Part shown: positions 13,263 to 60,614 of the stretch, in pieces
Numbering within the stretch: position 1 is the first letter of the stretch
How the letters are laid out: each line of letters starts with the position of its first letter
Assembly (NCBI GenBank): GCA_045643285.1
Contig: JAZUKN010000057.1
Location: forward strand, 10,076-74,075
Reading direction: 5' to 3'
From: Eubacteriales bacterium
GTDB taxonomy: Bacteria > Bacillota > Clostridia > Oscillospirales > CAG-272
DNA length: 64,000 bases
Notes under the pieces: model-generated
Told to the model about the DNA's origin: nothing
The model's database searches: none
Seen by the model: the letters and a program-made list of their open reading frames with translations, nothing else
Made by a program: the position numbers and the translations under genes

Positions 13263-15425
13263 TCAGCCGTTCAGCCGTTCTTTCAGTGACGAATAAAGGA
13301 CGGACGATTCAAGCGGAGTCTTTCCCCTCTGCTCTATGTATCTGAACGAATATATCTCCGCGTCCTCCGACTCTCTCAGATTCACGCCGAGGAGTCCAAG
13401 CTCGTCGAACACCGTAAGAATCAGTTTGAGTTTGACGTATCCGACGGGGATATTTGCCGATTTGAGAAGGTGGCGGAGCGCTCTCATGCTGAACACCTCG
13501 TGTTCCACCCGAAGTTCATGCTTCAGAATATTGTATACTGCGGCAAAATCGTCTCTCGTCGGTACGACAGAACGAAGCACGTCCGTACCGACGGAATCCG
13601 GCTCGTCTATCAGCTTTCTGTATAGCGCACGGTCGGCGTTCTCTTCGCGTGCTTTCGATAAAGAAAGCCGCACGTCCTTGACGATAAGCTGAACGCTCTT
13701 CTGGTCGCGGAATTCGTTCACGTCGAGCGAGAACATCACATCTACGGTGTCGCCGGGGTACAGGTCAAGCTCACCGAGAGAGAGGCGGAACACCATTGCG
13801 TTTACGTAATTCTGCCCTATCCTGAGCGTCAGACGGGTGTGCTTTCCGCCGCCGACAAGAGCGGTATCGTAAAGCGGTACGTCGTACATGACGAACACCG
13901 GCACCGGGTTAGACACGCCGTACGGCTCGAGCATATAAAGCTCGTTCGCCTGCTCTATCGTTATGTCGTCGGGAGCAAGCTCCATTTCAGCGTCAAGCGT
14001 CGGTTCGGTATCTACGTCAGTGAGATATTCGCGTGCGTATTCGTTGAGTTTTTTCTTGAAATCGTCGAGGTTCTCGCGCTTTATCGTAAGTCCGACGGCA
14101 AGCTCGTGACCGCCGAATTTTTCGAGCAGGTCTGAGCAGTTCTTCAGTGCGTCGACGAGGTTCAGCCCTTTTACGGATCGCCCCGAGCCTTTGCCGATCT
14201 CGCCGTTTTCCGAGCCTTCAAATGATATGAGGATCGACGGGCAGTTATACTTTTCTGTTATGCGCGACGCGACGATACCGATTATGCCGTGGTGCCATTT
14301 ATCGTCGTCGAGAACGATAACGGGATCGTTTTCAAAGTCGTGTTCCGCGGCGATTTTCGCGTACGCCTCTTCGACGATGTCGTTCTCGCCGGACTGACGC
14401 TCGCGGTTGATGTCGCAGAGCTGTTTTGCGATAGGTGCGGCAGTTTCGCGGTCCTTTGCGAGGAACAGCTCTACTGCGATAGACGCGGAGCTTATTCTGC
14501 CGGCGGCGTTTATTCTCGGCGCGACTGTAAATCCGATGAACGACGCCGTGATCTTGCGTTTTTTGCCGTATTTTGAATCCGCACTTGTTGCGTCGATAAG
14601 CTCGCACAGTCCCGGGCGTTCGGTATTTTCGATCAGTTCAAGACCGTACGAAACGATGAGACGGTTTTCGTCCTTTACGGGCATAACGTCTGCGATAGTG
14701 CCGATTGCAACAAGGTCGCCGTATTCGGCTGAGATGCGTCGCACGCAGTCTATCATGCTGTCATCGGGGTTCAGTACACTTTCAACGGCGCAAAGGAGCT
14801 TATACACCACTCCGACGCCTGCAAGCTCCTTGAAAGGATAATCACAGTCCGGTCTTCTCGGATTCACAACAGCGACGGCATCCGGAAGCTCGCTGTGACA
14901 TTCGTGGTGGTCAGTGACGATAACGTCCACGCCAAGCGATTTTGCGACTTCGACTTCTCCGACGGCTGTTATACCGGTGTCAACGGTTATGATGAGGCTG
15001 CATCCGTCCTCGGCGAGCTTGCGTATCGCGCCCTCGGAAACACCGTAGCCCTCGCCTGCCCTGCACGGGATGTAGTACGAAACGTCCGCGCCGTTTTTGC
15101 TCAGATAAAGGTACAGGCTGGAGACGGAAGTCACGCCGTCCACATCGTAATCGCCGAAGATAACGATTTTTTCGCCGCTTACCACCGCGTCAGCGACTCT
15201 TTCGGCGGCTTTCCGCATATCGCGCATCAGAAACGGGTCGTGGAGGATCTCTTCGGTCTTTCCGAGGAACGATTTTGCGCCGTCGACTGTAGTATACCCT
15301 CGGTTGACGAGCAGCATCGCGGTCGTCAGCGAAATGCCCAGCGCCGACGACAGCTCGTGCGCTTCCCGGCAGTCGAGAACGGCGTTATGGGGCGCCGCGA
15401 CTGCCCATTTTTTCTCTTTTCTCAT
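13263..15425 (-). CDS. recJ: Single-stranded-DNA-specific exonuclease RecJ
   Basis: DHH motifs DYDVDGVTS and VTDHHE plus DHHA1 GGHELAVG. I chose the ATG at 15425 (purine-rich AAAGAGAGA upstream) over the ORF-track start at 15464, which has no RBS. Confidence 0.9.
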   Translation of the reverse strand: MRKEKKWAVAAPHNAVLDCREAHELSSALGISLTTAMLLVNRGYTTVDGAKSFLGKTEEILHDPFLMRDMRKAAERVADAVVSGEKIVIFGDYDVDGVTSVSSLYLYLSKNGADVSYYIPCRAGEGYGVSEGAIRKLAEDGCSLIITVDTGITAVGEVEVAKSLGVDVIVTDHHECHSELPDAVAVVNPRRPDCDYPFKELAGVGVVYKLLCAVESVLNPDDSMIDCVRRISAEYGDLVAIGTIADVMPVKDENRLIVSYGLELIENTERPGLCELIDATSADSKYGKKRKITASFIGFTVAPRINAAGRISSASIAVELFLAKDRETAAPIAKQLCDINRERQSGENDIVEEAYAKIAAEHDFENDPVIVLDDDKWHHGIIGIVASRITEKYNCPSILISFEGSENGEIGKGSGRSVKGLNLVDALKNCSDLLEKFGGHELAVGLTIKRENLDDFKKKLNEYAREYLTDVDTEPTLDAEMELAPDDITIEQANELYMLEPYGVSNPVPVFVMYDVPLYDTALVGGGKHTRLTLRIGQNYVNAMVFRLSLGELDLYPGDTVDVMFSLDVNEFRDQKSVQLIVKDVRLSLSKAREENADRALYRKLIDEPDSVGTDVLRSVVPTRDDFAAVYNILKHELRVEHEVFSMRALRHLLKSANIPVGYVKLKLILTVFDELGLLGVNLRESEDAEIYSFRYIEQRGKTPLESSVLYSSLKERLNG

Positions 15426-15480: not shown

Positions 15481-16160
15481 TTGCACGAAGTGCAAACATC
15501 ATTTTTCTTTTACTTGCACAAACCTCATTAAGACAAAAGGAAGAAAACGTTTCACGTTTTCAATTTCATCTTTCTGTCCTGTTCGTTTACGAACGGGCGG
15601 ACGGCGCACAAGCCGAGTTCACTCCGTGAACTCGTCGAGATGCTCCGCATCTCGGTGAGTCACTTTCGCGGACTCCTTGCCAATCCACACGACTTAGGGG
15701 GAAGGTTGCTTCGCTCTATTCACGCCTACCGACTTCGTAAACGAAGTCGTCGAGATGCTCCGCATCTCGGTTGAACCCCTTTGTTTCAGAGTAAATGCAA
15801 CTCAATTATTTATCTTACCATTTAAAAACGACTACGTTTTACTTCATAATGAGCGTCAGCGCGCTATTATTATCGATCTAAATCCTCTACACCGTCGCAC
15901 TCGCTTTGTGACAAAGGGGAGTCCAGAGGGGGAATGAGCTTGCTCCTTCCCCCTTTGGCGGGATGATTCACAAGAAGGCCGCGTCGGTCTTCTTGTGCGC
16001 CCCGCGCGTAGCGGAAAACCGATACTAAACGTAGAGTTTGTGCAGATTCCGCGGGAGGGGAAACCCCTCCCCTACGGTGTATGTGGTGAAAAAAGTGTGA
16101 TTACGCGCGTAGCCGCGAAGAAAACTGAATTTTGAAAACGTCCCCGACGTTTTCTACCTT
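15481..16160. repeat. Double copy of the mosaic hairpin-module repeat (left arm 15513..15812 forward, core 15813..15895, right arm 15896..16160 inverted)
   Basis: Perfect hairpins lie at 15481..15495, 15543..15561, 15578..15597, 15615..15633, 15636..15654, 15730..15749, 15751..15769, 15969..15997, 16053..16071 and 16134..16154. The region is homologous by eye to 44920..45560 and to single copies elsewhere. Confidence 0.9.
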
Positions 16161-20501: not shown

Positions 20502-20560
20502 ATGTTTTTTTGTGATTTTTTAATTATTTTTGAAGATTTCTATGAGGATTTTCGAAAAAT

Positions 20561-20841
20561 CTCACGGCTTCGCACGAAATGTCATTTTCCACCGTAGGGC
20601 GGGGGTTTACTCCCGCCGCCGAAAGACTTGAGTTTACTTTATATAGGCAAAAGGTAGAAAACGTCTGCGACGTTTTCAGATTTATTTTTTGTCCTGTTCG
20701 CTTGCGAACGGGCGGACATCGGACAATTCATCCAAACCACACGTTTGGTGTCGTCTTTGTCCTACGCGGACGGCGCACAAGAGCATCGAATCATGGAGTT
20801 CACGAAGAGAACTCGGCTTGTCCGCCGTCCGCGTAAGACAA
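20561..20841 (+). repeat. Single forward copy of the mosaic hairpin-module repeat (truncated at the GRE promoter)
   Basis: Hairpins lie at 20598..20617, 20657..20677, 20693..20712, 20732..20748 and 20797..20813. A long outer inverted repeat gtcctacgcggacggcg / cgccgtccgcgtaagac spans 20759..20839. Confidence 0.85.
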
Positions 20842-20844
20842 ACC

Positions 20845-20873
20845 TTGACATATCCCCCAAAAACGGATATAAT
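20845..20873 (+). promoter_or_regulatory. Consensus sigma-A promoter for the glycyl-radical enzyme operon
   Basis: TTGACA (20845..20850), 17-nt spacer, TATAAT (20868..20873). A second TATAAT lies at 20881..20886. Confidence 0.7.
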
Positions 20874-23911: not shown

Positions 23912-23982
23912 ATACGCGAAGCGTATATCATCCGTGAAACGGATATCATCGCGCAGCGATATCATCCGCGAATGCGGATATC
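23912..23982. repeat. Tandem array of four mini-hairpins separated by exactly ATC
   Basis: Hairpins are atacgc-gaa-gcgtat (23912..23926), atccgt-gaa-acggat (23930..23944), atcgc-gca-gcgat (23948..23960) and atccgc-gaat-gcggat (23964..23979). The array starts 8 nt after the GRE stop codon. Confidence 0.85.
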
Positions 23983-23995
23983 ATTATTCTTTAAC

Positions 23996-24535
23996 TTGCA
24001 CAAGCCACGTGGCTTCGCACGAAATACAAATCCACCTCCGGTAGGGGACGGTGTCCTCGACGTCCCGCGGATTTAGGCAAACCTCACTGCTACGCACGAA
24101 AAATCATTCTATACCGTAGGGGAGGGGTTTCCCCTCCCGCGGATTTGCACAAACCTCACAAAGGAAAAGGAAGAAAACGTCGGGAACGTTTTCAAATAAT
24201 CTATTTGTCCTGTTCGTTTACGAACGAGCGGACAGGCGCACGATTTTTCCAAACCGCACGTTTGGCTTCGGTGTGTCCTGTTCGCTTGCGAACGGGCGGA
24301 CGGCGGACAAGCCGAGTTCACTCCGTGAACTCAGTGAACGTCGCCTCCTTGTCAATCTACCCGCTTAGGGGGAAGGGACTTCGTCCTATTCACGCCTCCC
24401 GACTTCGTAAACGAAGTCGTCGAGATGCTTCGCATCTCGGTCTGACTCCCCTTTGTTGCAAAGCGAATGCAAATCTTTTGTTCGCTTTATCAAATTATTC
24501 ATTATTCATTCTTCATTATTCATTATTCATTTCAG
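23996..24535 (+). repeat. Forward copy of the mosaic hairpin-module repeat with an internally duplicated module, ending in AT-rich heptamer repeats
   Basis: Hairpins lie at 24002..24015, 24045..24066, 24120..24138, 24173..24193, 24209..24228, 24249..24265, 24277..24296, 24314..24332, 24400..24419 and 24421..24439. Five attattc-type heptamers occupy 24494..24528. It matches 15513..15812 closely by eye. Confidence 0.9.
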
Positions 24536-24543
24536 GAGACATC

Positions 24544-25998: not shown

Positions 25999-26037
25999 AA
26001 GACTTTTTTGCTCGTTTTCTGTGAATGATTTTATATC

Positions 26038-26151
26038 CCGTACACGTCCTTGACCTTAGCTTCAAGGTATCTGAGGTAGAAGTCGGGATCGAACGGCTCG
26101 CCGAGGACCTTGTCAAGTATCTCGCACGGCTTGTAAAGCGAGCCGAACTGC
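26038..26151 (-). pseudogene. Orphan duplicate of the last ~37 codons of the M32 carboxypeptidase gene
   Basis: 114 bp align to 27396..27509 with 3 mismatches, all in the first ~25 bp. In the carboxypeptidase frame it reads ...LRYLEAKVKDVYGI-stop, and the substitutions are synonymous. No upstream coding sequence is attached. Confidence 0.85.
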
Positions 26152-26166
26152 GTGGGGATCTGTTTT

Positions 26167-27366
26167 TTATTTCCCTATGCACTTGCGTTCAAGTGCACTG
26201 AGGAATGCGCTTGACGTGAAAATCTGATAGTTACCGACTGTTTCGCCGTTGTCTGCCGGAAGCAGTCTGGTGTTTTCTGTCCCGACGAACAGCTTTGACG
26301 GAGTTGGGACGATAATCAGGATTTTTGTCGTGTCACTTTCAAATGAAAAATCAAATCTTGACAGAATGGGGTACAATTCTGTTTTAAAAAGCCGAAACGT
26401 GTGCAGGCATATTCCGTTTCCGTTTTCGGAAAAAGCAAGCGGCGAACCTTTCCACACTCCTGCAATAATCTTACAGCGGAATTCTTTCTCCCCGACCGAT
26501 ACGCTGAAATTGTAGCCTCTCTGTTCGCGGAACACAGAAGAATAAGGCTTTTTGACTTCGCTCAAAGCTATTGATTCTTTTGAGCAGACGCGGCGCAGAC
26601 TGCGCATAAATCTTCTCTGTTTCAAAAGAGCGCGTGCAAAGACAATCACGATAACCGCAGCTATCACAGACAGCACGGCAATAATTATTTTCACTGCATA
26701 TTCCCGATTTCCTCGCGCTAAGAGCAGCAGAGTACTTGCCAATGGTATGAGACACGCAAATCCCGAAAAGAGAATGAGACAACCGATAAGTACCACTATG
26801 AGATTTTTGATGGTTCTGACAATAGGATTCTTCTTGTTCGCCTTTCCATCATAATGGTCACGTCTCCAACCTTTATGTACATAATAGAATACGCAAAATT
26901 CAATCATGAACAAAAGCACGATGTAAATTACCCAAGAGATAATTTTTGTTTGAATCGGTGACAGAGATGATTTGTCAAGGAATGATCCCGCTATGCAGCC
27001 TAATCCGAAAGAGAACGGCATCACTGCCGATAAAACTGCGAAGCAGGCAAATTCGATTAAAAAGTCAAAAGAGAGGATAATGTTTTTCGATTCGGCGGAG
27101 AAAGTCGATTTCTCTTTGATTTTGTCGAGGTAGTCGCATTTTTTCTCATTGTTATTAACCTCCACTGCGCTCATAACAAGAAAAGTAATCAACAAAAGAA
27201 TGATAAAACCCCACACGGCAATGAAATGATCGCTGGTTTCATACGCCGCTACGGACAGAATTATTTCGAACATAATTTTTACTGCCGTCCAAAATCCGAC
27301 GACAAAAAAGTATGCGATGATCGAAATAAGAAATCGAAAACCTATTCTTTTCGCTTTATCTTCCAT
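26167..27366 (-). CDS. Hypothetical 6-TM membrane protein with ~140-aa C-terminal soluble domain
   Basis: 399 aa with six hydrophobic segments and then a basic linker RRFMRSLRR. I do not recognise the C-terminal domain. The gene is visibly AT-richer than its neighbours and sits between the 114-bp direct repeats. Confidence 0.7.
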   Translation of the reverse strand: MEDKAKRIGFRFLISIIAYFFVVGFWTAVKIMFEIILSVAAYETSDHFIAVWGFIILLLITFLVMSAVEVNNNEKKCDYLDKIKEKSTFSAESKNIILSFDFLIEFACFAVLSAVMPFSFGLGCIAGSFLDKSSLSPIQTKIISWVIYIVLLFMIEFCVFYYVHKGWRRDHYDGKANKKNPIVRTIKNLIVVLIGCLILFSGFACLIPLASTLLLLARGNREYAVKIIIAVLSVIAAVIVIVFARALLKQRRFMRSLRRVCSKESIALSEVKKPYSSVFREQRGYNFSVSVGEKEFRCKIIAGVWKGSPLAFSENGNGICLHTFRLFKTELYPILSRFDFSFESDTTKILIIVPTPSKLFVGTENTRLLPADNGETVGNYQIFTSSAFLSALERKCIGK

Positions 27367-27388
27367 AAAAAATCCTTTAGGGTTCTAT

Positions 27389-28888
27389 TTACACGCCGTA
27401 TACGTCCTTGACTTTCGCTTCAAGGTATCTGAGGTAGAAGTCGGGATCGAACGGCTCGCCGAGGACCTTGTCAAGTATCTCGCACGGCTTGTAAAGCGAG
27501 CCGAACTGCCATATTTCTGCTTTGTTCCACGCATTCACCGGTGCGAAATCGCCTTTTCTTATACAGCCGTCTACATCGACGGTCTTTTTCATTTTATCGA
27601 GGAACTGCGCGCCGTATGCCGAGCCGAGCGCATAGGACGGGAAGTATCCGATCGAGCCGCCCGACCAGTGGCTGTCCTGGAGAACGCCGTGCTTGTCGTC
27701 CGGCACGTCCACACCGAGATATTCTTTGTAGAGCGCGTTCCATGCCGCCGGCAGATCGTGGACGCTGAGCTGTCCTGCCATGACGCGCTTTTCAAGCTCG
27801 TATCTTACCATGACGTGCAGACAGTATGTTACTTCGTCGGCTTCGGTGCGGATCAGCGACGGCTCTGCCTTGTTTACCGCACGGTAGAAGTCCTCTGCGG
27901 TGTGCGCCTTTAGTTCAGGGAACAGCTCGCACAGCTTCGGATAGATGAATTCGCAGTACGCGCGGCTCCGTCCGATAATGTTTTCGTAGAAGCGGCTCTG
28001 GCTTTCGTGGATGCCCATTGAAACTCCGCCGTCGATCGCCGTGAATGCGTACTCGTCACGGCAACCCGTGTCATAAAGCGCGTGACCGCCTTCGTGGATG
28101 ACCGAGTACATCGACGGAACAAAATAGTCCTCGTGATAGTGCGTCGTGATGCGTTCGTCGAGGTGCGAGCCGAGGTCAGTCGTGAACGGATGCTCCGTCT
28201 CTGCGATGCCGACGTGCATGAGATCAAGTCCCATTGTACGCATCAGATAATCGGACAGCTCTCTCTGCTTGTCTATCGGGAAATTACCCCAGAGGAATGA
28301 GTCGTCGACCTGCTTTGTCGCGGCAACTTTTTTGAGCAAGGGAACAAGGCACGCGCGGACTTTTCCGAAAAAGTCGTCGCACACGGCTTTGTTAAGTCCG
28401 TCTTCATATTCACCGAGCCAGTAGTCGTAGGGATCCTTGTCAGGCGCGAAATATCCGGCAAAGCGCTTGTTCGTCTCGAAGATCTTTTCGAGGATAGGCT
28501 CGAAAAGCGCGAAATCGCTCGCTTCTTTTGCTCTGTGCCATACGTCGTCCGCCTCGACGAGCAGTTCCTCGTATGCGATATACTCGTTCATCGGAACTTT
28601 CTGCATCTGACGGATTGATTTGAGAAGCAGAAATACCTCGCGGCGCTCTTCTTCGGTAAGCTCATCCTTGTTTACGTCGAGAAATTCGAGCAGAGCAACG
28701 GTTTCTTCACCCGTCGAGAGCTTGTATTCCTCTTCGGAAAGAACTGCGAGCGTGCGTGCGCGGTTTGCGGCTGTGCCTTTCGGCGCGGTCGTCTGTCCGT
28801 CGTAGAAGATCATCGTGGATGCGTGGGCGTATGCTTTGAGTTTTGTTTGCAGGGTTTTGAGGTTTTCTCTTGCTTCGGTGAGTGTCAT
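27389..28888 (-). CDS. M32 carboxypeptidase (Taq-type thermostable carboxypeptidase 1 family)
   Basis: 499 aa with the zinc motif HEGGHALYD and the M32-typical HESQSRFYEN. Confidence 0.93.
   Translation of the reverse strand: MTLTEARENLKTLQTKLKAYAHASTMIFYDGQTTAPKGTAANRARTLAVLSEEEYKLSTGEETVALLEFLDVNKDELTEEERREVFLLLKSIRQMQKVPMNEYIAYEELLVEADDVWHRAKEASDFALFEPILEKIFETNKRFAGYFAPDKDPYDYWLGEYEDGLNKAVCDDFFGKVRACLVPLLKKVAATKQVDDSFLWGNFPIDKQRELSDYLMRTMGLDLMHVGIAETEHPFTTDLGSHLDERITTHYHEDYFVPSMYSVIHEGGHALYDTGCRDEYAFTAIDGGVSMGIHESQSRFYENIIGRSRAYCEFIYPKLCELFPELKAHTAEDFYRAVNKAEPSLIRTEADEVTYCLHVMVRYELEKRVMAGQLSVHDLPAAWNALYKEYLGVDVPDDKHGVLQDSHWSGGSIGYFPSYALGSAYGAQFLDKMKKTVDVDGCIRKGDFAPVNAWNKAEIWQFGSLYKPCEILDKVLGEPFDPDFYLRYLEAKVKDVYGV
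27396..27509. repeat. Direct-repeat partner of 26038..26151 (functional 3' end of the carboxypeptidase gene)
   Basis: Aligned by eye, about 90 consecutive identical bases plus a 5' part with 3 mismatches. Copy-to-copy offset is 1358 bp. Confidence 0.85.
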
Positions 28889-40547: not shown

Positions 40548-40628
40548 TGTGACTTCGTCACAGTGAAGTTTGCCTTCGGCAAGTGATGTTCGGCTTCGCC
40601 GAATGATGTTTTCATACTTCGTATGAAA
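40548..40628. repeat. Tandem array of four mini-hairpins directly after the glnN stop
   Basis: Hairpins are tgtgac-ttc-gtcaca (40548..40562), ttgcc-ttc-ggcaa (40570..40582), ttcggc-ttc-gccgaa (40589..40603) and tttcatac-ttc-gtatgaaa (40610..40628), separated by gtgaagt / gtgatg / tgatgt. A module-B-like hairpin follows at 40638..40666. Confidence 0.85.
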
Positions 40629-40680
40629 GTTAAGGAAGAAAAAACGTAACACGGTTACGTTTTTTCAAATAAACAAAACA

Positions 40681-40712: not shown

Positions 40713-40740
40713 ACATTAACTGCGCGGAGCACATCATAAC

Positions 40741-40801
40741 TTGCCGAAGGCAATCATCACTTCACGAAGTGAATCATCACTGCTCACTGTGACGTAGTCA
40801 C
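40741..40801. repeat. Mirror-image mini-hairpin array after the M23 peptidase gene stop
   Basis: Hairpins are ttgcc-gaa-ggcaa (40741..40753), ttcac-gaa-gtgaa (40761..40773) and gtgac-gta-gtcac (40789..40801), with tcatcac spacers. The first is the exact reverse complement of 40570..40582. Confidence 0.85.
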
Positions 40802-44919: not shown

Positions 44920-45560
44920 GAAAGAGAGAAAACGTCAGAGACGTTTTTATTATCCTAACTTGTTTACAAGTGGGCAGACGGGTATTTATCCAAACCGCAC
45001 GTTTGGATTCGTTTTTCCGCTACGCGCGGGGGCGCACAAGAGCGTACCGCGACGCTCTTGTGAATCACCGCGCTTAGGGGGAAGGTCGCTGCGCTCTATT
45101 CCCCCTAAGAACCCCTTTGTTGCAAAGTAATTGCAAATCTATTATTATCTAATCATTTATTAACGATTATGTTATACTTTATAATGAGCGGCAGCGCGCT
45201 ATTATTAACGATCTAAATCCTCGAAAACGTCGCACTCGCTTTGTGACAAGGGAGATTCCAACCGAGATGCGGAGCATCTCGACGACTTCGTTTACGAAGT
45301 CGGTAGGCGTGAATTGACGAAGTCCTTCCCCCTTTGGTTCGGTGATTGACAAGAGCGTCGAATAACGCTCTTGTCCGCCGTCCGCCGCGTATACATATGC
45401 CGGACAAAAAGATGAATTTGAAAACGTCACCGACGTTTTCTACCTTTTGCCGATGTAAAGAGTGTGCAGATCGTTCGGCGGCAGGAGTAACGCGTATACA
45501 TACGCACTGCCCTACGGCATACAGGTGAAGTTCACGCGAAGCCGCAAAATTTGTGCAAAG
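44920..45560. repeat. Second double copy of the mosaic hairpin-module repeat (left arm 44920..45140 forward, core 45141..45230, right arm 45231..45560 inverted)
   Basis: Hairpins lie at 44928..44948, 44959..44970, 44990..45006, 45035..45062, 45073..45109, 45263..45281, 45283..45302, 45348..45375, 45420..45440 and 45492..45505. The core segment 45181..45222 matches 15846..15887 at 40 of 42 positions. Confidence 0.9.
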
Positions 45561-51682: not shown

Positions 51683-51726
51683 GAAGTAAAATGAATATGA
51701 AAGAAGTAGACAAAGTGATCAAAAAA

Positions 51727-51880
51727 ATTTGCATTCACTTTGTAATAAAGGGGAGTCCAGAGGGGGAATGAGCTTGCTCCTTCCCCCTTTGGCGGGTAGA
51801 TTGACAAGAAGGTGACGGTCACCTTCTTGTCCGCCCCGCGCGTAGCGGAAACCATGAAATCGAAAACACGAAGTGTTTTC
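51727..51880 (-). repeat. Single inverted copy of the mosaic hairpin-module repeat (short subtype)
   Basis: Contains gacaagaaggtgac-g-gtcaccttcttgtc (51803..51831) and gaaaacac-gaa-gtgttttc (51862..51880). It nearly matches 15905..16015 by eye. Confidence 0.88.
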
Positions 51881-51965
51881 TTCCCCTTTACTCAAAAAAT
51901 GAATTACAACAAAACAAAAATAGAAAAATAAAAAAAGCATTTTTTACGAAAGGACAGATAAAACC

Positions 51966-54620: not shown

Positions 54621-54660
54621 CTTTCGGGAAAGAAATAAAGAAAGCTATAACATATATAGA

Positions 54661-54866
54661 AGAGGAAGAAAACGTCTGAGACGTTTTCTTCCTCTTGCCT
54701 ATGTGAAGTATGTGCAAATCGCCAGACGGGAGACCAATGGTCTCCCCTACGGTGGAAAACGATATTCCGTGCGCAGCCGTGACAATTCTTCGCCGGAAGA
54801 AATAACGTGCGGTTCCGCGCGTAGCCGCAGAAAACAGTTTCTTTCAAAAACGTTTCAAACGTTTTT
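54661..54866 (-). repeat. Inverted partial copy of the mosaic hairpin-module repeat
   Basis: A 16-bp perfect hairpin agaggaagaaaacgtc-tga-gacgttttcttcctct lies at 54661..54695. gggagacc-aat-ggtctccc (54728..54746) is followed by ctacgg, and aaaaacgt-ttcaa-acgttttt lies at 54846..54866. The region is collinear with 16030..16154. Confidence 0.82.
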
Positions 54867-54876
54867 CCCCTTTCGC

Positions 54877-54905
54877 TTGACGCACGCGAAAACCTGCTGT
54901 ATAAT
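54877..54905 (+). promoter_or_regulatory. Sigma-A promoter for azlC-azlD
   Basis: TTGACG (54877..54882), 17-nt spacer, TATAAT (54900..54905). Confidence 0.65.
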
Positions 54906-57673: not shown

Positions 57674-57924
57674 TGTGACAATCCTTCCGTCACGGCAAGC
57701 CGCGCCACCTCCCTTTGCACAAGGGAGGCTTAAATTGAGTCTCACGCTAAGGCTCCCTTGTGTAAAGGGAGCTGTCAACAAAGTTGACTGAGGGATTGTT
57801 CACCATTACATCAAAGTATTATTATCCCACATCACGACTTTTATCAAGTGAGGCTTTGATTAAGTCTCACGTTAAGGCTCCCTTGTGTAAAGGGAGCTGT
57901 CAACAAAGTTGACTGAGGGATTGT
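57674..57924. repeat. Q-type hairpin modules: one forward unit plus a 66-bp direct repeat of the inverted unit
   Basis: The forward unit is 57674..57728 (cctccctt-tgcac-aagggagg at 57708..57728). The 66-bp repeats are 57734..57799 and 57859..57924, with 2 mismatches and a 125-bp period. Each contains gctccctt-gtgta-aagggagc and gtcaac-aaa-gttgac. Confidence 0.88.
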
Positions 57925-58248
57925 GAAACCTGCTCGTCAATATATTCACACACTTTTTTGAAATTTGTGTTCACGTAGCTGTTGGCAAATCGGATGACTG
58001 TAAGACCGTATTGTTCAAGTAACGCTGTTCGTTCCTCATCGTATTGCTTGCCATCGGCAGTTTCGTGCTGTCGACCGTCAAGCTCAATTACAAGTTTGGC
58101 TTTGGCACAGTAAAAATCAACGATGTATCTCCCGAGTACTTTTCCCGAGAAAAGCGAACAGGATAGGTACTTAGAAAATCATACCATAAATGTTTTTTCT
58201 GAGCATCTTTGCAGTCGGAACAATGCTTTTGTTATGCTTGCTCTCCAT
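57900..58248 (-). pseudogene. DUF559 (Vsr-like endonuclease domain) gene remnant with frame disruptions
   Basis: The minus strand reads MESKHNKSIVPTAKMLRKN.. then (frame change) ..HLWYDFLSTYPVRFSREK then (frame change) VLGRYIVDFYCAKAKLVIELDGRQHETADGKQYDEERTALLEQYGLTVIRFAN... No intact ORF of 60 aa or more is listed in the track. The last 8 codons lie inside repeat copy 57859..57924. Confidence 0.75.
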
Positions 58249-58252
58249 AACT

Positions 58253-59256: not shown

Positions 59257-60261
59257 ATGTACAAAGACAAAAAAGTCGTATTCTCGGGAGTTCAGCCGTC
59301 GGGTGTGCTTACTATCGGCAACTATCTCGGCGCTATCCGCAATTTCAGCGAGTTTTCCGACGAATACCACTGCTATTACTGCGTCGTCGACGAGCACGCA
59401 ATAACAGTCCGTCAGGTACCTGCGGAGCTTCGCAAGAGAACATACGAGACGCTCGCGCTCTATATCGCCTGCGGACTTGATCCCGACAAGAACACACTGT
59501 TCGTGCAGAGCCACGTTTCCGCGCACGCAGAGCTTGGCTGGATCATCGACTGCTACACGATGTTCGGTGAGCTGTCGCGCATGACGCAGTTCAAGGACAA
59601 ATCCGCGAAGCACGCCGACAACGTAAACGCGGGGCTGTTCACATATCCGTCGCTTATGGTGGCGGACATTCTGCTCTACCAGTCGGAGCTTGTGCCGGTC
59701 GGAGTCGACCAGAAGCAGCATCTTGAGCTGACGCGAGACATCGCAACAAGATTCAATCAGCTCTACGGCGACACGTTCGTCGTTCCGGAGCCGTTCATTC
59801 CGAAGACGACGGCGAAGATCATGTCGCTCGCTGACCCGACGAAGAAGATGTCGAAATCTGACGAAAACGAGAACGCAACGGTGCGTATACTGGATCCGAA
59901 GGATGTCATCATACGCAAATTCAAGAGAGCGGTCACGGATTCCGGAAGCGAAGTAAAGTATTCCGACGACAAGCCGGGCGTATCGAATCTGATGTCGATA
60001 TACGGCGCGTTCACGGGTAAGGCAATGGACGAGATCGAGCGAGAATTTGACGGCAAGGGCTACGGCGACTTCAAGCTGGCTGTAGGGGAAGCGTGTGCAG
60101 ATGCGCTCGCACCGGTTCAGGCGGAGTTCAACCGTCTCGCCGCCGACAAGGCATATCTTGAAAGCGTAATGATCAAAGGCGCGGAGGCAGCCGCACACGA
60201 CGCCGCGAGAACGATGTCGAAGGTGCGCCGCAAGATCGGGCTTACGGAAGTAAGAAGATAA
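59257..60261 (+). CDS. trpS: Tryptophan--tRNA ligase
   Basis: 334 aa. The class I motifs are a HIGH-like TIGNYLG and KMSKS (KKMSKSD), and the sequence is TrpRS-like overall. Confidence 0.96.
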   Translation: MYKDKKVVFSGVQPSGVLTIGNYLGAIRNFSEFSDEYHCYYCVVDEHAITVRQVPAELRKRTYETLALYIACGLDPDKNTLFVQSHVSAHAELGWIIDCYTMFGELSRMTQFKDKSAKHADNVNAGLFTYPSLMVADILLYQSELVPVGVDQKQHLELTRDIATRFNQLYGDTFVVPEPFIPKTTAKIMSLADPTKKMSKSDENENATVRILDPKDVIIRKFKRAVTDSGSEVKYSDDKPGVSNLMSIYGAFTGKAMDEIEREFDGKGYGDFKLAVGEACADALAPVQAEFNRLAADKAYLESVMIKGAEAAAHDAARTMSKVRRKIGLTEVRR

Positions 60262-60530
60262 GGCTACGCACGAGGTATCACACACCTGTATACCGTAGGG
60301 GAGGGGTTTCCCCTCCCGCGGAACGACCTTCACATACTTCACATCGGCATAAGGTAGAAAACGTCGGGGACGTTTTCAAATTATTTGTTTTGTCCTACGC
60401 GGACGGCGGACAAGAAGGTGACCGTCACCTTCTTGTCAATCTACCCGCCAAAGGGGGAAGGTCGCTACGCCCACTTCCCACACTGGACTCCCCTTTGATG
60501 CAAAGTAAATGCGAGACTTTCGTTCACTCT
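60262..60530 (+). repeat. Single forward copy of the mosaic hairpin-module repeat (short subtype), followed by AT-rich heptamers
   Basis: Contains gggagggg-ttt-cccctccc (60299..60317), gaaaacgtc-ggg-gacgttttc (60357..60377) and gacaagaaggtgac-c-gtcaccttcttgtc (60409..60437). attattc-type repeats lie at 60543..60560. Confidence 0.88.
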
Positions 60531-60614
60531 GTCCTATTTTTCATTATTCATTATTAATTCTATTTTAACCCAAACTAACAATTTCAACCTAACATAATTC
60601 AAAGGAGCATCACA

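Follow-up and report, generated by a model that had tools for sequence, protein, structure and literature searches.

The window analysed here, a 64-kb stretch of DNA from an uncultured Clostridia/Ruminococcaceae-like lineage, holds two intergenic loci, double 1 in the rseC/recJ spacer and double 2 in the GHL10-amidase/DUF512 spacer. In double 1, the left arm A (15535-15802, read 5' to 3' on the minus strand) runs from an inner type-2 leader with its P1 hairpin (15776-15800) through two cassettes to a terminal hairpin, T, at its outer end (GAAAACGTTTCACGTTTTC, 15543-15561), which is terminator-like on both strands. Both cassettes are pairs of hairpins: the one at 15729-15770 (CGACTTCG.. plus CGAGATGC..) replaces half of helix P-a, and the one at 15613-15655 (GAGTTCAC.. 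plus CGAGATGC..) replaces the 3' half of helix P-b. An AT-rich spacer (15803-15847) separates this arm from the right arm B (15848-16030, plus strand), which opens with a 77-nt type-1 leader (15848-15924, plus strand; nhmmer 78.6 bits) of the form AATGAGCGnnAGCGCGC-N9-CGA-N3-AAATCyTC...CTTTGTGACAAAGGGG and continues with P1 (15895-15919), P-a (15924-15958), P-b (15969-15997) and P-c. Its outer extension (16031-16160, plus strand) adds a GTAG-type hairpin (16053-16075, minus strand) and a T hairpin (16134-16154).

Regarding double 2, the left arm E (44920-45140, minus strand) shows T at 44928-44948, P-b at 45035-45062, P-a at 45073-45109 and, at its inner end, P1 and the type-2 leader (45112-45136). 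The AT-rich spacer that follows (45141-45182) includes TGTTATACT/TATAAT, whose resemblance to a -10 box is limited to this species. The right arm F (45183-45452, plus strand) consists of a type-1 leader (45183-45259, plus strand; nhmmer 74.2 bits), P1 (45230-45252), one cassette (45262-45303), P-b (45348-45375) and T (45420-45440). It is prolonged by an outer extension (45453-45560, plus strand; TGTGCAGAT..., a hairpin ending in CCCTACGG, and ...CGCGAAGCCGC) that is homologous to 60289-60356 and 20557-20650.

The original prediction described the stretches 15513-16160 and 44920-45560 as double copies with a large palindromic architecture. The shared plan was confirmed, with two opposed hairpin-rich arms around an AT-rich centre, but the strict palindrome was not: arms A and B are complementary over 39 nt at 74% only, and arms E and F reach 68 nt at 79% and share the terminal hairpin in addition. 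The palindromy of the doublets is hence one of mirrored module order, not of mirrored sequence. The four outer hairpins of the GAAAACGTC type (15543-15561, 16134-16154, 44928-44948 and 45420-45440) do face outward, and the CCCCTTTG...AATGCAA ends at 15776-15800 and 45112-45136 face inward, as described. The same is true of the match between 15846-15887 and 45181-45222 (40 of 42 positions), and blastn aligned 15773-15925 with 45109-45260 in the same orientation, collinearly and with 85.6% identity over 153 nt (E=1e-45). Collinear conservation of the core thus stands, although its right half is not a shared centre but the type-1 leader of the right arm, which also heads a solo arm in a second species (contig L018, 16092-16167). 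Two details of this core are not shared by the second species: the -10-like CATAAT/TATAAT is present in both window loci but reads CCGAAT in four of that species' leaders, and the palindrome AGCGCGCT is replaced there by AGCGCGCA.

The claim that exactly one arm per locus carries the CGACTTCG/CGAGATGC cassette was correct for that cassette, found only at 15729-15770 on the left and at 45262-45303 on the right, but the left arm at 15.6 kb has a second, different one (15613-15655). The arms are, as suggested, mosaic and not simple copies. Each of them is closer to arms elsewhere than to its own partner; arm B matches 51731-51851 with 87% identity over 124 nt, and arm A matches arm F with 94% identity over 78 nt.

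Dispersed members in the window

The idea of two copies only did not hold, as five further family loci lie in the window. In total, we counted seven intergenic loci with nine arms in 64 kb, all between housekeeping genes, with arms pointing either way relative to the neighbouring genes; most of the longer intergenic spacers are filled by the family. Locus C (20540-20850, minus strand) is a solo or partial member. The solo arm D (24010-24540, minus strand) has a type-2 leader, both cassette types and outer GTAG hairpins, and abuts the start of a GNAT gene. The shortest complete arm is the solo arm G (51690-51900, plus strand), with a type-2 leader, P-a, P-b, P-c and T (51862-51880). Locus H (54640-54880) is limited to a T hairpin (54668-54688) and an outer-extension unit, and the solo arm I (60260-60570, minus strand) shows an outer GTAG hairpin (60295-60317) and T (60357-60377). 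Apart from these loci, a lone T-like hairpin lies at 40637-40666 (GAAAAAACGTAAC-ACG-GTTACGTTTTTTC) within the flanks typical of the family's T (AAGGAAG...CAAAT). It is placed between a glnA-like and an M23 peptidase gene, and the orthologous spacer of the second species holds a full doublet.

One could argue that there is no element here at all, and that terminators and other hairpins accumulated independently, the two loci being alike by chance or convergence. The hairpins are indeed at expected terminator positions, and related species carry other hairpin modules in the same spacers. Yet the 153-nt match (86%) crosses a non-palindromic centre, the 77-nt leader is recovered by nhmmer at seven places with E-values from ~1e-20 to 5e-23, and collinear alignments of 100-230 nt link the loci. 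Pattern counts are also far above those of shuffles: eight T hairpins in the window against 0.04 expected, and six occurrences of CCTTCCCCCT..ATTNACAAG against 0 expected. Because of the alignments we consider chance or convergence refuted, and its probability next to nil.

Arm modules and the nature of the hairpins

We aligned 14 arms in a single orientation and found them collinear throughout. Their length is ~170-330 nt and their module order is leader, P1, P-a, P-b, P-c and terminal hairpin T. The type-1 leader is non-palindromic (AATGAGCGnnAGCGCGC-N9-CGA-N3-AAATCyTC-...-CTTTGTRACAAAGGGG) and shows zero indels across all seven copies found; the type-2 leader is shorter (..AAAGCGAAC..ATTTGCATTCGCTTTG..). 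P1 consists of CTTTG-loop-CAAAG followed by GGGGAGTC, P-a of CAGAGGGGGAA...TTCCCCCTTTGG or the covarying CTTAGGGGGAA...TTCCCCCTAAG, P-b of GATTSACAAGAAGG...CCTTCTTGTS, and P-c of CGCCGTCCGCGTAGGAC. T has the form GAAAACGTC-NNN-GACGTTTTC with T-rich flanks, and in some arms it is followed by an outer extension with a GTAG-headed hairpin and a second T. The GTAG head belongs to the outer module only (GTAGGGGAGGGG..CCCCTCCC, at 24116-24138, 60295-60317 and, as the reverse complement, 16053-16075). Several looser variants of this module exist, and P-a, P-b, T and the cassettes are without a GTAG head. The two-hairpin cassettes, made of CCGAGATGC..GCATCTCG plus either CGACTTCG.. or GAGTTCAC.., lie nested within P-a or P-b; in arms A, D, F, K1L and K3 they take the place of one half of that helix.

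We found no plausible ORF in the family loci. A 10-codon ORF in the leader (ATGAGCGGnAGCGCG...TAA), kept in six of the seven copies, was rejected: it has no ribosome-binding site, its conservation is not codon-phased and the K1 copy stops early. Two structures were discarded as well, namely a long RNA hairpin formed by both arms of a doublet, as the arms are barely complementary, and a closing stem AAAGGGGAG/CTTCCCCTTT from the fold of arm G, which is not conserved in other arms.

T hairpins score as terminator-like on both strands, and their form and position suggest that they very probably act as bidirectional terminators; the family probably supplies such terminators between genes. Around 20-40% of an arm is in stems, and 96.5% of the stem pairs are Watson-Crick (608 of 630). 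Both partners have changed in 10 of 20 pairs of P-a, P-b and P-c, with covariation in helices P-b and P-c. Of the cells, 94.9% are paired; shuffles give 82% (0/500), and sliding the partner columns gives 46-59%. The hairpins are clearly maintained.

Maintained hairpins are also what a structured RNA would leave behind, and the original prediction had named a small structured-RNA gene with its own promoter among its options. Each arm would then be a small-RNA gene, and the doublets would be two paralogous, divergent small RNAs starting from the AT-rich centre and stopping at the outer T. An ordered series of modules ending in an intrinsic-terminator-like hairpin with T-rich sequence, a conserved 77-nt leader and compensatory changes, as found in P-b and P-c, are expected of a transcribed RNA gene too. 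In addition, most leaders are preceded by AT-rich DNA, TGTTATACT/TATAAT sits just ahead of arm F, and the solo arm G folds with z = -7.2. The promoter does not hold across species, however: the -10-like box is CCGAAT in the second species, and K1 has 0 promoter-like sites. Folding gives no preference for a strand (z = -7.2 and -4.1 for the opposite strand, against -7.2 and -4.7), and the stem mismatches show no RNA-strand bias, for among the 69 hairpins counted in 19 arms we found, in arm orientation, 6 G.T and 16 A.C mismatches, with no G.U excess. Cassettes delete half of P-a or P-b in the five arms named above and so break the helices. Nor would one expect small-RNA genes to occupy seven loci per 64 kb, to be oriented at random to neighbouring genes, to be missing from orthologous sites and to differ between strains by replaced blocks. 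Finally, Rfam 15 gave no match at gathering thresholds, and searches in E-value mode with both kinds of double returned noise only. We thus regard a small-RNA gene as unlikely. Covariation together with terminator-like ends implies that repeats of this kind are easily mistaken for structured-RNA genes.

Doublets and spacers in relatives and strains

Contigs from relatives were obtained via the flanking proteins; the element-carrying sequence examined comprises the 64 kb of the window and ~50 kb more. Further double copies and empty orthologous sites, both of them checks called for by the original prediction, were found. In another strain (L015, flanking protein 99% identical), the same double, type-1 leader included, occupies the same place. 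In the second species, whose flanking proteins are ~80% identical, the family is present at five places in 38 kb, three of them doublets (L018 4205-4960, L018 9120-9940 and L050 14000-14790). These follow the plan seen in the window, with a type-2-like arm, a centre and a type-1 arm, and their centre of ~190 nt is almost invariant among the three. Because the same plan and a near-invariant centre recur at three loci, the doublet qualifies as a propagated unit: one arm of each leader type, type 2 and type 1, joined head to head by an AT-rich or unique centre and copied together. With solo arms also at hand, propagation of the arms either solo or as a doublet is the best-supported account.

The site of double 2 is empty in four relatives (L017, L020, L125 and L126; DUF512 78-87% identical), where the spacer measures 190-285 bp and holds a plain terminator and promoter. 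The site of double 1 is empty in L050 and L051. No family members were found in ~70 kb from other relatives with empty spacers. Between the two species the repeats are ~80% identical, coding DNA is 72-84% identical, and ordinary spacer sequence is not alignable by eye. This degree of repeat identity points to constraint or recent transfer and would not be expected of mere junk.

The family-free relatives have spacer hairpins of their own, at L017 440-560 and at L020 4135-4200 and 10300-10460 (TTAAGAACCTTT..AAAGGTTCTTAA, GTTGGGA..TCCCAAC). Because they carry other modules in the same spacers, modular intergenic hairpins seem to be a general habit of the lineage, with different families in each species.

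In the GHL10-amidase/DUF512 spacer, the doublet centre of the second species is opposite in orientation to that of the window: in the window the type-1 leader faces DUF512, and in the orthologous spacer of L018 (K2) it faces the other way. This could be read as an invertible switch, in which recombination between the arms flips the asymmetric centre (type-1 leader and core) and alters the read-out towards the neighbours, and the amidase-side arm does keep an almost identical P-a segment of ~49 nt (compared by eye). The difference is accounted for just as well, however, by independent insertions at one permissive spacer, and both available strains with double 2 share a single orientation. Outer terminator hairpins would block the read-out, the centre has no conserved promoter, and a scan of 20 window ORFs, those on either side of both doubles among them, found no recombinase gene. 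A switch of this sort strikes us as highly improbable.

Comparison of strains showed a rapid turnover of the family. Between the window and L015, ~660 bp of spacer are almost identical, with a handful of single-base differences, while ~150 nt of the outer part of left arm E are replaced in L015 by other alleles of the same modules. L049, whose RecJ is 99% identical, keeps both T hairpins of double 1, and in place of the ~590 bp between them in the window it has ~110 bp made of other family modules. Yet another T allele, together with a both-sides change in a neighbouring hairpin, is found in a third strain, L124. With arm blocks swapped between strains whose flanks are ~99% identical, recombination among copies, which the original prediction had listed as one possible origin of the doublets, is borne out as a process. 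Block replacement within the species reads, in these alignments, as the signature of frequent exchange between dispersed copies. Regarding the hairpin upstream of recJ, the change on both sides is seen between the window (15481-15495, TTGCACTTCGTGCAA) and L124 (71-85, TTGCGCTTCGCGCAA), and L049 (1508-1522) has a one-sided variant.

The family breaks metagenome assemblies: L016, L124 and a 2.2-kb contig with P0241, all from the species of the window, stop at the repeats or close to them. Block replacement at the strain level makes the repeats fast-evolving markers.

Mobility, known systems and neighbouring arrays

Altogether, the two loci are probably head-to-head doublets of a lineage-restricted, non-coding, interspersed mosaic palindromic repeat, of BIME/REP- or MITE-like kind. 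The family would colonise the neutral zone between the terminator of one gene and the promoter of the next, and ectopic recombination or gene conversion between copies would reshuffle it rapidly. The hairpin form may be kept because hairpins act on single-stranded nucleic acid. Their likeliest roles, once transcribed, would be those of bidirectional intrinsic terminators or mRNA-end stabilisers, and they may also serve as recognition structures for whichever enzyme moves them.

Among the options of the original prediction, a MITE-like element comes closest, since the unit recurs and orthologous spacers are empty, but the arms are not true terminal inverted repeats, no target-site duplication is visible and the 20 window ORFs scanned include no transposase partner. 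In its strict form, the doublet would be a foldback or TIR-type MITE, a deletion derivative of an IS with a DDE transposase, whose arms are the TIRs and whose broken halves are the solo arms. Inverted arms flanking a unique centre, multiple non-coding copies, and presence or absence at orthologous sites of different species all agree with this. However, complementarity within a double is limited to 39-68 nt at 74-79%, and it is the centre that is most conserved, not the ends, which are T hairpins and thus palindromes themselves. Solo arms are complete, ordered and as common as doubles; 650-820 bp is large for a MITE; and no related IS was seen in the sequences examined. We saw no direct repeat or target duplication at the outer ends of double 1, double 2, K1 and K2, these ends being approximate. 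A strict MITE is quite unlikely on this evidence.

As for the mover of the BIME/REP- or MITE-like repeat that we favour, our preferred guess would be a trans-acting single-strand transposase (HUH/Y1, RAYT- or IS200/IS605-like). HUH/Y1-type single-strand transposases use hairpins and leave no target duplication. A hairpin-reading enzyme is favoured because no target duplications are visible, the ends are rich in hairpins and one module is GTAG-headed. Criteria for a reading of the RAYT or IS200/IS605 type are given by Nunvar et al. 2010 (PMC2817692). Scanning of 20 window ORFs revealed housekeeping genes only and no transposase or other mobilising enzyme. Should a dedicated enzyme that reads hairpins exist, the family would offer a tractable REP/RAYT-like system within an uncultured lineage of gut Clostridia. 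A bolder proposal, which we put forward as a rather doubtful one, is that what replicates is the doublet rather than the solo arm, as the unit of a REPIN-like system of Clostridia moved by a hairpin-reading HUH/Y1 transposase. The 77-nt leader together with the ~190-nt centre would form the recognition or loop region, and the centre might flip by recombination between the arms. If true, REP/RAYT-type biology would extend to Firmicutes with a far more complex, nested module grammar, and orphan motifs such as Gut-1 might be parts of the same repeat ecosystem.

The repeat family is new but of a familiar kind, comparable to BIME/REP clusters, ERIC/BOX and other small repeats. Literature searches turned up no description of it. 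Searches for the arm pattern in GTDB representative genomes gave 14 single unrelated matches with no blast similarity, and those for the leader pattern in JGI metagenomes gave 28 GC-rich soil contigs, all by chance. Two patterns searched in IMG/VR yielded chance matches only, and blastn of the double against plasmid and phage records found no match.

ERIC/IRU of enterobacteria and BOX of Streptococcus pneumoniae are, like the family described here, modular non-coding elements of intergenic DNA that may carry internal insertions at fixed places. They lie in either orientation to genes, form stable hairpins when transcribed and are restricted to species or lineages; BOX elements have the modular structure boxA-boxB(n)-boxC. 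In contrast to them, with which there is no sequence similarity, the arms here end in a terminator-like hairpin, form head-to-head doublets with a conserved asymmetric centre and nest cassettes into hairpins much more heavily. Both groups are reportedly the topic of reviews by Delihas from 2008 and 2011. The Clostridia family is also comparable to the Correia elements in that both are small non-coding intergenic repeats able to supply terminators or processing sites to neighbouring transcripts. Correia/NEMIS elements of Neisseria are TIR-type MITEs with promoter, terminator and RNase III functions, and are marked by TIRs of a defined 26 nt and by duplication of a TA target, features not seen here.

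REP/BIME and the REPINs of Pseudomonas are mobilised by RAYT Y1 transposases (Nunvar et al. 2010, PMC2817692). The family shares with them abundant, short, imperfect extragenic palindromes in variable order, clusters of alternating orientation with marked differences in length between strains, and complementary changes that preserve palindromy. Its inverted doublets with an embedded inter-repeat segment behave as compound repeats, as REPINs do, and one module (GTAGGGGAGGGG-TTT-CCCCTCCC) has the REP-typical GTAG head. It differs from REP in that most modules lack this head, and the unit consists of at least six different ordered palindromes and a 77-nt non-palindromic leader instead of one or two REP types. 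The host is a lineage of Clostridia, not Proteobacteria, and no RAYT gene was seen among the 20 window ORFs scanned.

Arrays of GC hairpins with tetraloops adjoin members of the family at 23920-23986 (minus strand) and 40561-40634 (plus strand), the latter with an inverted partner at 40724-40761. Their constant spacer is GATATCAT or GTGAAGT. They score 41.4 bits (23920-23986) and 35.1 bits (40561-40634) with RF01706, below its gathering score of 50. RF01706 is the Rfam entry of the Gut-1 RNA motif (Weinberg et al. 2010, PMC2864571). The doublet and arm family has no similarity to Gut-1, and the Gut-1-like arrays are a separate module type. In the second species, hairpin arrays spaced by GTGAAG and similar by eye flank the solo arm K3 (L018 15944-16045 and 16345-16430); the RF01706 search of these second-species arrays gave no match. 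Another GTGAAG array (L050 14319-14401), likewise with no match to RF01706, is inserted into the type-1 leader of a doublet and bordered by a direct duplication of 36 bp (~14283-14318 and ~14402-14437). We discarded a long target duplication as its origin, ectopic recombination between two leader-bearing repeats being simpler.

Two other repeats were noted in the window. Units of 87 nt, 91% identical and with a period of 125, stand in tandem at 57713-57799 and 57838-57924 and adjoin what appears by eye to be the remnant of a frameshifted, DUF559-like endonuclease gene (57930-58250, minus strand). Finally, a direct repeat of 122 nt (95% identical) at 26030-26151 and 27388-27509 corresponds to the 3' end of an M32 carboxypeptidase gene, duplicated beyond a low-GC gene for a membrane protein of 399 aa (26167-27366), and the whole region (26030-27509) looks like a gene insertion with a long target duplication.
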